Below are positions 2,049-40,641 of a stretch of 64,000 nt of DNA, one piece after another. The DNA comes from a virus. Taxonomy: Duplodnaviria > Caudoviricetes. The stretch lies in IMG/VR virus record IMGVR_UViG_3300043174_000028, positions 5,902 to 69,901 of that record; one strand, 5' to 3'. Below the pieces are notes generated by a model that was not told where the DNA came from, made no database searches, and saw nothing but the letters and a program-made list of their open reading frames with translations. Within the stretch, counting starts at the first letter, position 1; each line of letters starts with the position of its first letter. The translations under genes and the position numbers were made by a program.

Positions 2049-2594
2049 ATGGCCAAGCCGACACTCAACAAGATGTTCATCTTCAACAGCTTGTTCAATG
2101 CGATATTCGACCCAGCCAAGAAGTATTCCATTCAAACCAAGAAGAACCTGATCCAGAGGAATAACCAGCTCTACGGGAACACATCGGCAAGAGGTGGGTT
2201 GTACTACCTGGGAGTAAAGCACCTGTCTTATAACCCGGAGAACAACCTGCGGTATGTGCCGCACTATCCATTGCACGATAACTTGATCCCGGAGATGGAA
2301 GAGTACCTCAAGAGCAGGGATAAGCTCACCTCGTTCATGGATCAGGCTAACCGTACCCTGACTATCCTGCTGACTCCGGTGCAGAGCTATGAAGATCTGT
2401 ACTACCTGCTGGACAGCACCTTGTTCGTATTGGCTTGCCCGAACAGGAACTTCGATTCGGGTATGCCGACAGGCATGGCAGAGTACGTACCCAGCAAGCG
2501 GTTGCAGGAACTAAAGCAGGAACATGCCGAGTTCCTGCAACTGCTGCTGGAACAGCACATGGAAAACCTTATCTCTCAACAGCTCTATCAGTAG
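2049..2594 (+). CDS. Hypothetical protein between helicase and DNA polymerase (N4 gp38 position)
   Basis: GGAGG RBS, 181 aa, synteny with N4-like phages. Confidence 0.7.
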   Translation: MAKPTLNKMFIFNSLFNAIFDPAKKYSIQTKKNLIQRNNQLYGNTSARGGLYYLGVKHLSYNPENNLRYVPHYPLHDNLIPEMEEYLKSRDKLTSFMDQANRTLTILLTPVQSYEDLYYLLDSTLFVLACPNRNFDSGMPTGMAEYVPSKRLQELKQEHAEFLQLLLEQHMENLISQQLYQ

Positions 2595-2602
2595 GTGTAG
2601 CC

Positions 2603-4132
2603 ATGCTCAGGCATCTCATGTTTAGCACCGAACAGGAAAGCTATGACCTTGCCATCCTCATCAAGAACAAGGCCATGATCGAAAGGGAACTAATTACACA
2701 TTACATCCAACCCCTGGAGGATCTGGGCATAGCACGCAAGCAGGTGGTGGCACTCAGCCTTGAGATGTCGGACACCAACAAGGTGACAGCGCAGGAAGCC
2801 AAGGAATGCCTGGCTAACATTGGCTCTTACTGCAAACAAAAAGGCATCCGTCACGTGCTAGTGGCGGATGCCTTCTACTTCAAGACTGCGTGCAAGGTCA
2901 AAAAGGCGGAGCCTCACTACGGCTACGTACTGCCTGCGCCTCTCATCTCGCCCGGTGTCCAGGCTACCTTGAGCGTGAACTACCAACAGCTCTTCTACAA
3001 TCCCAGTCTTAAATCCAGATTGGTTATGGGATTGAATGCAGTAGCAAACAGTATATGTCACAAACCTGGATTGTTTGCAAACTCAATACTGATAAACGCC
3101 AGTTACCCGGAAACCATAGAAGATATAAGTCGAACATTACAGGAATTGCACAGTAAACCTGCACTCACCTGCGACATAGAAACACTAGGACTGAAACCAG
3201 AAGAACAGAGAAGCTTAGTGTCTATTGCCTTTGCCTGGGACAAGTATTCAGGCATAGCGTTCATGCTGAACAACTACCTGCCTAGCCATAGAACCAAGAT
3301 CAAGCAACTGTTGAAAAAGTTCTTCTTGCAATACAAGGGAACTTTAATCTTCCACAACGCAACCTTCGACACCAAGAACCTCATTCACTTCCTGTTCATG
3401 AAGAATCCTTCCGACCTGACAGGGATGCTGGAAGGATTGCACTGTCTCTACCGTAAGCTGGATGACACCAAGTTGCTGGCTTACCTCGCCAGCAATACCA
3501 CGGCTAACAATTCTCTGAGCCTGAAGGATCTGGCCTTCGAGTTTGCTGGCAAGTACAGCCTCGACAGCTTCGACTTCTCAGTGTGTCTGAACCAGAAAGA
3601 GATACTGGAATACAACCTGACCGACTGTGCTGCCACCTGGTATGTCTATGAGGTGTACCGGGAGAAGGTGAGACAGGAACAGGAGTGGATCTATCAGAGC
3701 TTGATGCTGTCTGCGCTCAAGACCATCACTCAGATGGAACTGACAGGCATGGCCATGAGCAAATCTGCCATCGACAGGCTGGCAGAGAACCTGCAAAGGG
3801 ACATGCGCAAGGTGGCACAGGACATTGCAGATCATCCTATTGTGCAGCAGTTCACCAGGGAACTGCGAATAGCAGCAGCCATCGAGCACACGGCACGGCT
3901 GAAGAAAACCATCAAGACGGAGGAAGACTACGCAGATCTGAAGTTCAATCCAGGAAGCAACAAGCATCTGGCAAAGCTCTTGTTCGACCATTTGGCTTTG
4001 CCTGTGTTCAGGTACACCGACACCAATGCTCCCAGCGTGGATGAGAAGTCCCTCAACTCTCTCATTGGCTGGATAAGAAACCAATTACCAGGAGACACAC
4101 ATGGCACAACTGACCCCGCTTCAGGTCTATGA
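2603..4132 (+). CDS. Family A DNA polymerase, block 1 (N-terminal domain, 3'-5' exonuclease, start of thumb)
   Basis: ExoI TCDIET, ExoII FHNATFD, ExoIII YNLTDC, FNPGSNKHLAKLLF; frame closes at 4132 before the polymerase motifs. Confidence 0.9.
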   Translation: MLRHLMFSTEQESYDLAILIKNKAMIERELITHYIQPLEDLGIARKQVVALSLEMSDTNKVTAQEAKECLANIGSYCKQKGIRHVLVADAFYFKTACKVKKAEPHYGYVLPAPLISPGVQATLSVNYQQLFYNPSLKSRLVMGLNAVANSICHKPGLFANSILINASYPETIEDISRTLQELHSKPALTCDIETLGLKPEEQRSLVSIAFAWDKYSGIAFMLNNYLPSHRTKIKQLLKKFFLQYKGTLIFHNATFDTKNLIHFLFMKNPSDLTGMLEGLHCLYRKLDDTKLLAYLASNTTANNSLSLKDLAFEFAGKYSLDSFDFSVCLNQKEILEYNLTDCAATWYVYEVYREKVRQEQEWIYQSLMLSALKTITQMELTGMAMSKSAIDRLAENLQRDMRKVAQDIADHPIVQQFTRELRIAAAIEHTARLKKTIKTEEDYADLKFNPGSNKHLAKLLFDHLALPVFRYTDTNAPSVDEKSLNSLIGWIRNQLPGDTHGTTDPASGL

Positions 4133-4394
4133 AGCACAGCAGATCATCAAGAAACTGGGTGGCGTAGGGATTCTCCAGGTGGATGACATCCCCGTGCTCA
4201 ACACTCAGACAGGTAAGGTACTCAAGCTGATGCTGGACATGAAGTGGCATGAAGCTTGGGAGATCCTCGAAGTGGCAGGAGGTACGGAAGGGCTGAGGCG
4301 TATGCGCACCCTGCGTACCCTGCCGAGAGTGGAGATTCACAAAAGGAAAAGCTTTGGTTCCAGGGGATTTGCCTACCGCCTGGAAGTTACATGA
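4101..4394 (+). CDS. 97-aa hypothetical protein nested between DNA polymerase blocks 1 and 2
   Basis: Own RBS (CAGGAG) inside block 1; stop overlaps the ATG of block 2 (ATGA). Confidence 0.7.
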   Translation: MAQLTPLQVYEAQQIIKKLGGVGILQVDDIPVLNTQTGKVLKLMLDMKWHEAWEILEVAGGTEGLRRMRTLRTLPRVEIHKRKSFGSRGFAYRLEVT

Positions 4395-5005
4395 ACAAGG
4401 ACTATTCGCTGGAAGAAATCCTGAACCTGCTGGAGAGCATCAAGAACCACAACGCTCTGAGCACGATGCTCTCCACTTTCATCAGCTCTTTCCAGAAGAA
4501 CACCCTGTCTCCAGATCCAACCAAGCCAGATGAAGTGCGCCTCTATGGTTCGTTCAACCTGGGAGGCACGCTTAGTGGCAGGTTGAGCAGCAGCTCGCCC
4601 AATCTCCAGAACATTCCCTCGACCGGGACTCCCTATGCCAAGCCTGTGAAGGAGTGCTTCCGCGCTCCTGCAGGCTGGCTCATGGTGGGAGCGGACTTCA
4701 ATGCGCTGGAGGAACGGGTGGGCAGCCTGCTCACCAAGGATCCAAACAGGCTCAAGGTCTACCACGAAGGGTTCGATGGGCACTGTCTCAGGGCCTATGC
4801 GTACTTCGGGGACAAGATGCCGGACATACGCCAGGCAACAGACCAGGAGCGTTGCTTCAAGCTGCAGGCAGGCAAGGATACGGTGTACTGCAAGGCAGAT
4901 GACGTGCTGGTTCTGCCTGACGGAACACGCAAGACGGTGCAACAACTATTCGAGGAGGAAGGCTATGGAGATAAAGCTGACTGCCAAGCCAACCAAGGTC
5001 AGTGA
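4391..5005 (+). CDS. Family A DNA polymerase, block 2 (includes motif A)
   Basis: GGTLSGRLSSSSPNLQNIP, motif A WLMVGADFNALEER, DGHCLRAYAYF. Confidence 0.9.
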   Translation: MNKDYSLEEILNLLESIKNHNALSTMLSTFISSFQKNTLSPDPTKPDEVRLYGSFNLGGTLSGRLSSSSPNLQNIPSTGTPYAKPVKECFRAPAGWLMVGADFNALEERVGSLLTKDPNRLKVYHEGFDGHCLRAYAYFGDKMPDIRQATDQERCFKLQAGKDTVYCKADDVLVLPDGTRKTVQQLFEEEGYGDKADCQANQGQ

Positions 5006-5096
5006 GATCAGCAGTACCGAATTCAACGTCTACTACATCAACTCAATAGCAAAGGAGCATAGGGGACTTCGCCAAGAATCGAAGTCCCCTACTTAG
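4965..5096 (+). CDS. Family A DNA polymerase, block 3 (43 aa, first half of motif B)
   Basis: Strong RBS GAGGAGG then ATG; INSIAKEHRGLRQESKSPT then TAG; matches N4-type LRQxSKxPT. Confidence 0.8.
   Translation: MEIKLTAKPTKVSEISSTEFNVYYINSIAKEHRGLRQESKSPT
5060..5091 (+). promoter_or_regulatory. Perfect 12-bp hairpin in polymerase block 3, ending at the last codon before the coding gap (candidate recoding signal)
   Basis: taggggacttcg (5060-5071) / cgaagtccccta (5080-5091), 8-nt loop. Confidence 0.6.
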
Positions 5097-5098
5097 CT

Positions 5099-5719
5099 TT
5101 TGCCCTTCAGTACGGCAGCAGTGCTAACGGTCTGGTGGAGAACTTTGGCTTTGCCCCGGACCAAGCCAGGAAACTCTATGAGAAGTATCACGAGCTGTAC
5201 GAGGTATCGGATACCTGGGTGCAGCACAAGCTGGAAGAGGCCAGTGCTCGTGGCTATGCAGAGCTGGCCTTTGGTCTGCGTTTGCAGACTCCGATATTGC
5301 AGCAGGTAATCCTGTCGGCCAAGCGGTCCCTGCCTTACGAGGCACACAAGGAAGCCAAGACCGTAGCCAACGCGCACGTGCAGTCATACAGCCTGCTCAA
5401 CACCCGGGCAGCCAATGCCTTCATGCAGCGTGTGTGGAAGTCCAAATACAAGGAACAGATCTTGCCTATTGCCCAGATCCACGACTCCATCTACCTGCTC
5501 ATTCGCAACAACCTGAAAGTTCTTCATTGGGTCAATGAGAACTTGATTGAAGAAATGAACTGGAACCAACTGCCTGAGTTGCAGGATTCTCGGGTGGGAC
5601 TGGAGGCCAAGCTGGAACTGTACTGGCCGGACTGGTCCAAGCCGCACGTCATCCCCAATGGGCTGTCATTGCAGCAGCTCAAGGAACATTTGGTTTCTCT
5701 CAAACTCAAGAAGGAATGA
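5099..5719 (+). CDS. Family A DNA polymerase, block 4 (second half of motif B, motif C); no start codon of its own before FALQYG
   Basis: FALQYG continues motif B after a 5-nt gap; motif C PIAQIHDSIYL; LYWPDWS C-terminus typical of N4-like polymerases. Confidence 0.85.
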   Translation, partial: FALQYGSSANGLVENFGFAPDQARKLYEKYHELYEVSDTWVQHKLEEASARGYAELAFGLRLQTPILQQVILSAKRSLPYEAHKEAKTVANAHVQSYSLLNTRAANAFMQRVWKSKYKEQILPIAQIHDSIYLLIRNNLKVLHWVNENLIEEMNWNQLPELQDSRVGLEAKLELYWPDWSKPHVIPNGLSLQQLKEHLVSLKLKKE

Positions 5720-5722
5720 AAG

Positions 5723-6706
5723 ATGCTGACTAATCGAAAGCATATCCCGCTACCTATGGCCGTATGGCTGGCAGCTCAGGATGGATATGACCTGGAGTTC
5801 CATCCGGAAGTCATCTCCGCCACCGAGTTGCTTCTTCCTTTGCGTTCCTTGGTTCTCTCCCGCAGAACGGAACGCAGGATCGTGCAGGACATCGACGATC
5901 TGGTGCCTTCCCGTCTGGGTACGGCAACCCATACAGCAATGGAGAATGCCTGGCTCAACCACTATGCGGCAGCCATGGCCAACCTGGGCTACTCCGATGA
6001 AGTGATTGCTTCCATCAAGATCAATCCAGATGTAGTCAATCCAGGAGATGTTCCTGTGTATCTGGAGAAGAGAACCAACAGGAAGCTGTTGGATTACACC
6101 ATCTCGGGCAAGTTCGACATTGTTATCAACGGTGAACTGCACGACCTGAAGACTACCAGGACGTTTGCCTGGATCAGTGGATCCAATGACAGGGAGTACC
6201 AGCTACAAGGCAGTATCTATCGTTGGCTTAATCCAGACCTGATTACAGAAGACTACCTGACTATCAACTACTTGTTCACTGACTGGAATGTGAACAGGGC
6301 CATGTCGGAGAACGATTATCCGACTAACCGTTGCATGTCCAAGAAGTTCCCGCTTCTGTCATTGAAGGACATTGAAACCTTCATGGTGGACAAGCTGGCT
6401 CAGTTCAAGAAGTACGAGACAGCCCCACAGGAAGAACTGCCCAAGTGCTCTACCAAGGAACTGTGGCAGGAGCATCCTCGTTGGGCGTACTACAAGAGCC
6501 CGAACAACATGAAACGGGCCACTAAGCTGTTTGATCTGGAAAAGGATGCCAATCTGTTCAACCAGCTCAACGGCAGCAAAGGTGTAGTAGTCAAGAGAGA
6601 AGGCGAACCAAGGCGCTGCAACTACTGCGCTGCCAGGAACTATTGCCTGCAGGCTCAGGACTTCGAGCTGGCGGGATTACTCAACAAACAGGAGACCTAC
6701 CCATGA
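5723..6706 (+). CDS. PD-(D/E)XK exonuclease (N4 gp42-like, Cas4-like)
   Basis: ISGKFDIV...HDLKTT, YQLQGSIY, C-terminal RRCNYC; synteny. Confidence 0.8.
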   Translation: MLTNRKHIPLPMAVWLAAQDGYDLEFHPEVISATELLLPLRSLVLSRRTERRIVQDIDDLVPSRLGTATHTAMENAWLNHYAAAMANLGYSDEVIASIKINPDVVNPGDVPVYLEKRTNRKLLDYTISGKFDIVINGELHDLKTTRTFAWISGSNDREYQLQGSIYRWLNPDLITEDYLTINYLFTDWNVNRAMSENDYPTNRCMSKKFPLLSLKDIETFMVDKLAQFKKYETAPQEELPKCSTKELWQEHPRWAYYKSPNNMKRATKLFDLEKDANLFNQLNGSKGVVVKREGEPRRCNYCAARNYCLQAQDFELAGLLNKQETYP

Positions 6707-39776: not shown

Positions 39777-40641
39777 CCTATACGTTCAAGAAGGCTCGCT
39801 AGTTCCTTCCCCGTTTTCCAGTAGTTAAACAGGAAAACTGCTGTATGTCGCCATACAGAGCAGACTACATCACGAACTGTCGTGGCAAACAGTTCCTTAC
39901 CATTTCCACTTCCAATAGCTTGAAGTGTACTCCCATATGGGATAGTCGTTAGAGTCGGGTTAGATAACATTAAGAGCATACCCATTAAATTCAGAATAAG
40001 TCTGAACTATCCGATTAGCTGCTTGTGCAGCCATACGCTCTGCCTCAGATTCTCCATATTTCTTGATGCTGAATTGTTTGGATTTGGCGAATAATTTTCC
40101 TTGAACAGTAGCCTTGACTACAGCTCTGAAGTAAATCTCGCCCTTTACTGCATTGGAGATACGATCCACATAGTGATACCGTGAACTCCTACCAAACTTC
40201 AGACCAATATTTTTGTAGTGTGCTTTACGACGCCCATGCTTAAAGGCATGTAGAGCATTTTCACTTGGAGTACACCATTCGAGATTATCCACGTTATTGT
40301 TTAGTGGATTACCGTCAATATGGTTTATCTGAGGTTTATTGTGTGGGTTGGAAATAAAGTGTTCTGCGACAAGACGGTGTACGGAATAAGTATCCTTTCC
40401 ATACTCATTGCGCAAACCAACCTTGTAGTAACCATTGCCACCCAACCATAAAGACATTGGTTTGTTGGTACGCACAGACAGCACAGTACCTTCAGTGCTG
40501 ATCTGATACTTACCTTCAAATCCTTCAATGTCTTTCCACACAATCATCTGTTACTACCCTTACTACGGGATTGTCTCAGAGAGATTTTCCCCGTTTAGAT
40601 AAGTTTTCTATTACCGTCACCAGTAATAGGCGCATTAGTTT
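39777..40641 (-). mobile_element. Group I intron 2 in the capsid gene, encoding an HNH homing endonuclease
   Basis: 5' exon ends in U (CGCGT), intron ends in G; core elements AACGACTATCCC and GATGTAGTCTG; splicing restores GGRVNRVG. Confidence 0.9.
39960..40547 (-). CDS. Intron-encoded NUMOD4/HNH homing endonuclease with AP2-like C-terminus
   Basis: WKDIEGFEGKYQIS, VHRLVAEHF, INHIDGNPLNNNVDNLEWCT..EN. Confidence 0.92.
   Translation of the reverse strand: MIVWKDIEGFEGKYQISTEGTVLSVRTNKPMSLWLGGNGYYKVGLRNEYGKDTYSVHRLVAEHFISNPHNKPQINHIDGNPLNNNVDNLEWCTPSENALHAFKHGRRKAHYKNIGLKFGRSSRYHYVDRISNAVKGEIYFRAVVKATVQGKLFAKSKQFSIKKYGESEAERMAAQAANRIVQTYSEFNGYALNVI

Follow-up and report, generated by a model that had tools for sequence, protein, structure and literature searches.

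How can a replication enzyme be made from a gene whose conserved core is broken by a stop codon and two extra bases? The question is raised by a DNA polymerase gene in the IMG/VR record IMGVR_UViG_3300043174_000028, of which positions 5,902 to 69,901 were analyzed here (64,000 nucleotides (nt), called the window; all coordinates refer to it). The source contig, a record of 69.9 kilobases (kb) with an estimated completeness of 94%, comes from a diverged N4-like phage. Its family A DNA polymerase gene lies in pieces: block 1, an inserted open reading frame (ORF) of 97 codons (orf97), a block with motif A (block 2), an ORF of 43 codons (block 3) and a block with motifs B and C (block 4). Between the last two pieces motif B itself is cut. 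The codon ACT at 5091-5093 is followed by TAG at 5094-5096 and CT at 5097-5098, and the polymerase frame restarts with TTT at 5099 (FALQYG). An earlier note on this DNA had proposed that ribosomes cross the five bases by programmed bypassing, that is, by a forward slide of 5 nt. The relatives studied here speak for that proposal: their gaps vary, one codon rule runs through them, and a hairpin next to the gap covaries. A programmed short-range bypass (+5 hop) within the split polymerase gene is probably the right explanation.

A five-base gap in motif B

The features at the site are listed below.

4952-4962, + strand: Shine-Dalgarno (SD) sequence GAGGAGGAAGG of the C-terminal fragment, ending 2 nt before ATG 4965
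4965-5093, + strand: first 43 codons of the C-terminal fragment, with a new leader (conserved in split relatives) and the first half of motif B, up to the take-off codon; the ORF spans 4965-5096
5052-5057, + strand: SD-like AAGGAG, 2 nt 5' of the hairpin; motif enriched in gap-bearing relatives
5060-5091, + strand: 5' stem-loop, a perfect stem of 12 base pairs (bp) (5060-5071 with 5080-5091) and a loop of 8 nt, ending on A5091; compensatory changes in relatives
5091-5093, + strand: candidate take-off codon ACT (Thr), the last frame-0 codon that matches motif B
5094-5098, + strand: coding gap, TAG and CT; identical in loci L005 and L090 and in contigs of three studies, TAGCT also in the distant locus L007
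5096-5098, + strand: proposed landing codon GCT, directly before the resume codon TTT 5099
5099-5719, + strand: resumed frame, with the second half of motif B (FALQYG), motif C and the polymerase end; PF00476 positions 215-362; 42-47% identity to N4-like polymerases of cultured phages

In frame 0, the 43-codon ORF runs from ATG 4965 through INSIAKEHRGLRQESKSPT to ACT and stops at TAG. The frame resumed at 5099 is the one used by blocks 1, 2 and 4, and it stays open to 5719. Uninterrupted full-length relatives read LRQESKAPTFALTY in one frame at motif B. The register R-x3-K-x3-F-x3-Y of this motif, which forms the O-helix, is regained only if exactly 5094-5098 are dropped. The joined product of 249 amino acids then aligns without a gap to nine uninterrupted C-terminal fragments from metagenomes (232-250 amino acids). 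The claim of the earlier note that removal of TAGCT restores an N4-type motif B is thus borne out, and so are the coordinates that it gave for a perfect 12-bp hairpin with an 8-nt loop ending on the A of ACT. Could block 4 have a start of its own? The note had seen none usable before the essential Tyr, and the same was found here: the frame of block 4 has a stop at 5060-5062, and the first ATG, GTG or TTG after it is GTG 5135. Because of this stop and the lack of a start codon before GTG 5135, block 4 cannot start upstream of the essential Phe and Tyr. The landing codon agrees only in part, the note having counted one mismatch to the take-off codon. Bases 2 and 3 of GCT match those of ACT, and the first position would need a G-U pair.

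The region is strongly folded. For 5040-5110 the predicted energy is -28.8 kcal/mol (z = -5.3), and none of 200 shuffles was as stable. The minimum-energy fold also adds an outer helix of 7 bp, in which 5049-5055 (GCAAAGG, overlapping the SD-like motif) pairs with 5097-5103 (CUUUUGC, in the landing and resume codons).

Are the five bases present beyond this one assembly? They are found in two close relatives. L005, from another Joint Genome Institute (JGI) metagenome, is 98.7% identical to the window over 2687 bases with no gaps (35 substitutions), and L090 is 99.6% identical over 2109 bases (9 substitutions); both have the same hairpin and the same TAGCT. Logan contigs from three studies of freshwater and groundwater cover the site with no insertion or deletion, at depths of 72, 15 and 3, with the reservation that one of the three studies may be the source sample of the window and that DNA contigs hide rare variants. 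At contig level the presence of TAGCT is therefore confirmed outside the window, and no gapless form appeared. The pattern of substitutions was also considered. Of the 35 differences between the window and L005, 17 fall within orf97 and blocks 2-4, and 14 of these 17 are synonymous in the frame assigned to each block. Both block 3 and block 4 are under purifying selection.

Gaps in related polymerases

Is the gap a peculiarity of one phage or does it recur? To find relatives, a length-restricted protein search was made, the contigs were fetched and 160 loci from viral and metagenome collections were scanned. Many N4-like polymerases from metagenomes are split at the same place, and several of their C-terminal ORFs start just after motif B. 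About ten distinct lineages bear a gap of 1, 5, 9 or 48 nt, at one of three positions in motif B. They are given below, from the last correct codon to the codon at which the frame resumes.

After SKxPT (site A), window: ACT TAG CT, then TTT; 5 nt
After SKxPT, L007: ACC TAG CT, then TTT; 5 nt
After SKxPT, L029 and L118: ACC TGA CT, then TTC; 5 nt
After SKxPT, L076-78: ACT TAA CT, then TTT; 5 nt
After SKxPT, L006: ACT TAG GGA ACT, then TTT; 9 nt, in frame
After SKxPT, L131 (1490-1503): one extra T (ACC T TTT CTG); 1 nt
After FALT, L009: ACG TAA CG, then TAC; 5 nt
After FALT, L057, L063 and L079: ACG TAA CA, then TAT; 5 nt
After FALT, L008: ACC, 48 nt ending in ACT, then TAC; 48 nt with TGA and an 18-bp hairpin (14 bp of perfect inverted repeat)
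After FLL, L043: CTC AGG TAA CTT, then ACC; 9 nt

The gaps are mixed, since some shift the frame and some are in frame. Readthrough or a single frameshift of fixed size cannot account for the whole set. A simple rule nearly always fits: beyond a stop codon, the tRNA of the last correct codon would find a second codon that it can read, directly adjoining the codon at which the correct frame resumes. Take-off and landing codons are fully compatible in seven lineages of relatives (for example ACT/ACT, ACC/ACT, ACG/ACG, ACG/ACA and CTC/CTT), and where the two codons differ they remain in one wobble class (ACC/ACT, ACG/ACA, CTC/CTT). The stop directly 3' of the take-off codon is TAG, TAA or TGA in the relatives; in L043 it is AGG and then TAA. 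Note that a 5-nt form with TAG entails the landing codon GCT, which is the case in the window and in the distant L007. The whole design is conserved across more than 40% protein divergence. Thus the question that the earlier note had left to relatives, whether the gap and a covarying hairpin recur, can be answered with yes; the gap changes in length from lineage to lineage, and the stem shows compensatory changes.

Two of these loci deserve a separate word. In L131 the extra T, a +1 version of the element, stands behind a weaker hairpin and an HNH gene. In L008 the gap (2973-3022) is in frame, its second codon is TGA, and a GGA-rich sequence lies a few bases before the landing ACT; among the elements found here it appears to be the nearest look-alike of the gap in T4 gene 60.

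A single-protein scan of viral contigs gave no matches, whereas alignment-based scans succeeded. Pattern scans of DNA for the SD-like motif plus stem returned two chance matches in unrelated genes (L173 and L174) and the already known L029 contig.

Hairpin and Shine-Dalgarno-like motif as candidate stimulators

What distinguishes the gap-bearing sequences from the uninterrupted ones, apart from the gap? The first difference is the hairpin. The 45 nt that end at the take-off codon fold with -20 to -24 kcal/mol in nearly all gap forms at site A, while the same region in 141 uninterrupted loci has a median of -3.7 and a minimum of -15 (Mann-Whitney p = 9e-6 on distinct sequences, an indicative value). 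The hairpin is absent from these 141 gapless loci. The stems differ in sequence and yet stay paired, with four pairs changed on both sides. The covariation score is 0.244 compared with 0.133 for shuffles and was reached by none of 500 shuffles; two rows of the alignment are out of register, which lowers these figures. One example is L006, where a C-G pair of the stem has become A-T through two synonymous substitutions.

The second difference is the SD-like motif, which the earlier note did not include. AAGGAG lies 2 nt 5' of the stem in the window and 3 nt in L007, L029 and L077. At this place GGAG or GAGG occurs in 7 of the 9 distinct gap-bearing sequences of site A, compared with 5 of 117 uninterrupted ones (Fisher p = 3e-7, likewise indicative). 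The elements at the other two positions (sites B and C) have the same layout, with GGAGG or AAGGAG followed by a hairpin of 10-12 bp that abuts the take-off codon. A gap of 5 nt is too short to hold a take-off stem-loop of its own, and an internal hairpin is found only in the 48-nt gap of L008.

How the gap may be crossed

The proposed course of events is as follows. Translation of the C-terminal fragment would start at ATG 4965. After 43 codons peptidyl-tRNA(Thr) would occupy ACU 5091-5093 and the A site would hold UAG, a stop whose context (UAG-C) is weak and at which termination would be slow. The tRNA would then leave ACU, the mRNA would slide by 5 nt, and the tRNA would re-pair on GCU 5096-5098 by a U36-G wobble and two further pairs. 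Decoding would restart at UUU 5099, and the product would be the fragment of 249 amino acids with its O-helix intact (SKSPT-FALQYG). What might drive the slide? At take-off the ribosome would cover the 3' arm of the hairpin but not its 5' arm and loop. Moving on by about 5 nt would free the first bases of the 3' arm, so that the loop-proximal pairs could form and act as a ratchet. Hairpin and AAGGAG together might push the slide forward and block a backward slide. The AAGGAG might retain the ribosome, or it might add tension after the stem has formed. A 2024 preprint (10.1101/2024.12.09.627546) proposes that in gene 60 forward bypassing is driven by pairing of the mRNA as it exits.

Several points weigh against this account. 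All sequences that bear the element are metagenomic, and no cultured phage with it was found, either by a near-identity search or by tblastn with the 43-residue leader against cultured phages. The landing codon is GCU in the window and in L007, not ACU, and a G-U pair is required at the first position. In the linear sequence, 33 nt separate the AAGGAG from the take-off codon. As the 3' arm of the hairpin would be inside the ribosome at take-off, any role of the hairpin must be a dynamic one, which is conjecture. Synthetic stop-hops in E. coli are inefficient, while an essential polymerase needs a reasonable yield. The statistics on fold, covariation and SD-like motif count related sequences as independent, and their p-values are only indicative. 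Finally, L071 (2480-2503) reads CCG TGA ACA ACA TTC: six bases are added in frame, and both a hairpin and a matched codon are missing. This may reflect a different mechanism, a different genetic code or a defective gene. L071 is nearly identical to the uninterrupted L089.

Other explanations

Could the gene do without any recoding? Translation would then end at TAG, and either the polymerase would be defective or block 4 would be made separately, with the O-helix split over two polypeptides. Two other breaks already divide this polymerase into separate genes, and upstream of block 4 there are an SD-like motif and a bridging hairpin. Yet the window and most relatives have no start in the frame of block 4 before the essential Phe and Tyr, and an O-helix divided between Lys and Phe would hardly function. 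A defective gene is also hard to reconcile with the purifying selection on blocks 3 and 4, with a record that holds no second polymerase and with a design kept over more than 40% protein divergence. We consider this explanation unlikely.

A -1 frameshift is very unlikely. Here tRNA(Pro) would slip back on the C CCU run before the take-off codon and give the product SKSP-Y-L-A-FALQYG, which has two extra residues in the O-helix. In all 5-nt forms of site A the Thr codon does follow a run of four or five C, which would formally allow a slip in the P site, and the required change from frame 0 to frame 2 equals -1. The C run, however, is needed for the stem anyway. All uninterrupted relatives keep the conserved Lys and Phe at i/i+4, and the two extra residues would be inserted between them. 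A slippery heptamer X XXY YYZ is missing, and so is a stimulator on the downstream side; the sole strong structure is upstream. The in-frame gaps of 9 and 48 nt and the gaps of site B would remain unexplained.

There is very little to be said for removal of the five bases at the level of nucleic acid, whether by RNA processing, polymerase slippage or a subpopulation of DNA, and we regard it as highly improbable. The 48-nt gap of L008 forms a tight hairpin that an RNA-cutting and joining system could in principle excise. The window, on the other hand, has no homopolymer run for slippage, no Rfam family (introns included) and no intron core was found in 3900-5800, and the DNA contigs of the three studies show no gapless form, with the proviso already made for rare variants. 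We know of no system that removes 5 nt.

A sequencing or assembly artefact, conceivable in that the window is a metagenome-assembled contig, has next to no chance and was excluded: the five bases are in two further assemblies and in the contigs of three studies, the site is identical in independent contigs with 9 and 35 substitutions elsewhere, and similar gaps occur in distant relatives.

Two ways of reading through the stop were also looked at. TAG as a sense codon was rejected, as the continuation frame has no polymerase homology; TAG ends 16 of 61 crude long ORFs. No tRNA gene, and hence no suppressor tRNA, was found in the window.

The split gene and its homing-endonuclease cassette

The gene is that of a family A DNA polymerase like N4 gp39, with an exonuclease domain and motifs A, B and C. 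Pfam matches to PF01612 (3'-5' exonuclease) and PF00476 run across blocks 1, 2 and 4, the identity to polymerases of Schitoviridae is 34-59%, and a PF00476 search found no other such gene in the whole 69.9-kb record. The pieces upstream of the C-terminal fragment are as follows.

2435-4132, + strand: exonuclease and thumb block (block 1), the first polymerase piece
4101-4394, + strand: inserted ORF of 97 codons (orf97) with its own SD sequence, within the thumb region; ATGA overlap with the motif A block
4391-5005, + strand: middle fragment with motif A; PF00476 positions 64-203
4829-5002, + strand: C-terminal tail, the last ~59 codons of the middle fragment, without counterpart in uninterrupted polymerases and homologous to the tails of the N-terminal fragments of L007 and L008

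The start of orf97 lies 32 nt before the stop of block 1. No Pfam match was found for orf97, and it has no counterpart in the full-length relatives, which are contiguous there. Further downstream, homology to full-length polymerases ends at GDKMPDI, at about 4828. These relatives continue from GDKMPDI through about seven residues to INSIAKKYKPLRQESKAPTFALTY, all in one frame, while in the window about 187 bases are added between 4828 and 5037; these make up the tail and the new leader. The five bases of the gap come on top. The tail may serve to hold the two fragments together. Its pattern …ERCFK…CK…D..V…G is conserved in the window and in the cassette-bearing L007 and L008. The conserved 43-codon leader is also present in split forms that are not interrupted, and hence gives no hint of a nascent-peptide signal for bypassing.

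Where did the extra DNA come from? In nine gap-bearing loci with enough flanking sequence, the upstream fragment with its tail and the leader are separated by a gene for an HNH/NUMOD4 endonuclease. No HNH gene was found at this locus in the lineage of the window or in L076-78. The window phage has kept the split gene, the tails and the gap and has lost the endonuclease gene. A comparison of L029, which has the cassette, with L040, which does not, is informative. The two are ~99% identical from the resume codon on and diverged just before it, and therefore the gap is at the 3' edge of recently inserted DNA. In a quick tree of the downstream part of the polymerase, gap forms are scattered among uninterrupted polymerases, and the 5-nt form of site A needs at least 3 changes. 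The gap belongs to the HNH cassette, which goes beyond the earlier note. By analogy with the MobA element of T4 we infer that it is an immunity mark of the cassette, which breaks the target of the endonuclease in the conserved DNA of motif B, where no change of the protein is tolerated.

Other HNH genes were seen near these polymerases and in the window. An HNH homologue at 40128-40535 (- strand), in the region where the earlier note had placed introns in the capsid gene, shares 33-48% identity with the endonucleases in the cassettes of L007, L008 and L009. In L137, L037, L120, L056, L166, L106, L122 and L031, which have an intact motif B, an HNH match lies 250-1000 nt upstream, before the region of GYDGH. 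This suggests a second insertion site, which may have a gap of its own.

Putting these observations together, we lean towards a wider scenario, held with less confidence than the hop in the window. N4-like phages would possess a modular family of micro-bypass elements, each composed of SD-like motif, hairpin, take-off codon, stop and landing codon, with gaps of 1-48 nt at several positions in motif B. The elements would travel with HNH cassettes as marks of self-immunity, and the hops would be efficient enough for an essential replicase, even from ACU to GCU. This would be a utilized natural form of short stop-hopping, with an origin independent of T4 gene 60.

Implications

To our knowledge, T4 gene 60 is the only case of programmed translational bypassing with proof from the bench. 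The known homologues of that bypass are all in the topoisomerase of myoviruses (Manning and Atkins 2022, bioRxiv 10.1101/2022.08.31.505936). If the scenario is true, the polymerase elements are a second, unrelated family of bypasses and a rare natural short form of the gene 60 bypass, and bypassing would be a recurrent way for homing cassettes to break their own target in conserved coding DNA that is indispensable. The elements would also provide a natural series for the study of forward sliding, with distances of 1, 5, 9 and 48 nt, three stop codons, matched or wobble landing codons and covarying hairpins. There would be a warning for annotation as well, namely that some polymerase genes marked as "frameshifted" in phage metagenomes are functional.

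Relation to known systems

Which known systems does the element resemble? In the +1 frameshift of prfB (RF2), a stop in the A site is followed by C, and an upstream SD-like sequence favors forward movement. That event is a +1 slip to an overlapping codon with the SD sequence 3 nt away, whereas in the window the shift would be +5, the landing codon shares a single base with the stop (its last), and the SD-like motif is separated from the site by a hairpin. A candidate bypass in terminase genes of Streptomyces phages, which depends on the rare UUA codon, was proposed to be regulatory and is without bench proof (PMC10732093). It shares a short coding gap, a proposed 5' stem-loop and a flanking Shine-Dalgarno interaction with the elements described here, and differs in having no link to a homing endonuclease.

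Short inserts are also skipped in the mitochondria of Magnusiomyces capitatus, where the 'byp' elements are mobile GC-rich inserts of 27-55 nt, with an unused codon in the A site (Lang et al. 2014; PMC5009743). The likeness is that inserts in essential genes are passed over in translation and that pairing of two out of three codon bases is used, like ACU to GCU here; the difference is that the ribosomes are mitochondrial and there is no endonuclease cassette. Comparable, too, are the synthetic stop-hops of E. coli (Weiss et al. 1987; O'Connor et al. 1989), with +5 and +6 events and with 9 nt that specify one amino acid (PMC5009743). As of the same 2016 review (PMC5009743), no natural in-frame stop-hop was known. 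There too peptidyl-tRNA crosses a stop to a matching codon, overlapping or not, a few bases downstream. Those hops are low-level events in reporter constructs, whereas the hop proposed here would be required for an essential enzyme and has dedicated candidate stimulators. In the literature searched, we found no description of a bypass in a polymerase gene, nor of natural short stop-hopping that is utilized.

The most extensive likeness is with T4 gene 60, whose 50-nt bypass reportedly lies within a MobA element (Huang 1988; Bonocora 2011; Manning and Atkins 2022). In both cases an HNH-type cassette interrupts the gene of an essential enzyme and provides the fragments with C-terminal and N-terminal tails, and the gap lies in highly conserved DNA near the 3' edge of the cassette. 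In both, a short leader ORF runs to the take-off codon and then to a stop, and there are a 5' stem-loop and an SD-like element. A landing codon for the tRNA of the take-off codon, as in gene 60, stands in seven lineages of relatives; in the window GCT would need the G-U pair at its first base. MobA elements that have lost the endonuclease and kept the bypass are known (Manning and Atkins 2022, bioRxiv 10.1101/2022.08.31.505936), and the window would be a parallel case. A 'hungry' AGG in the A site occurs in L043 and in some MobA clades. There are also clear differences. The element here sits in a family A DNA polymerase gene of N4-like podoviruses, not in a topoisomerase gene of myoviruses, and MobA elements are found only in Topo2L (same reference). 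The gap is 5 nt and not 50, with no take-off stem-loop inside the gap of the window. The hairpin here abuts the take-off codon on its 5' side, and the SD-like motif is 5' of the hairpin, while in gene 60 it is inside the gap. The take-off codon is for Thr and not Gly, and the leaders have no sequence similarity. The element of the window is thus best regarded as an analogue of the MobA family, not as a member of it.

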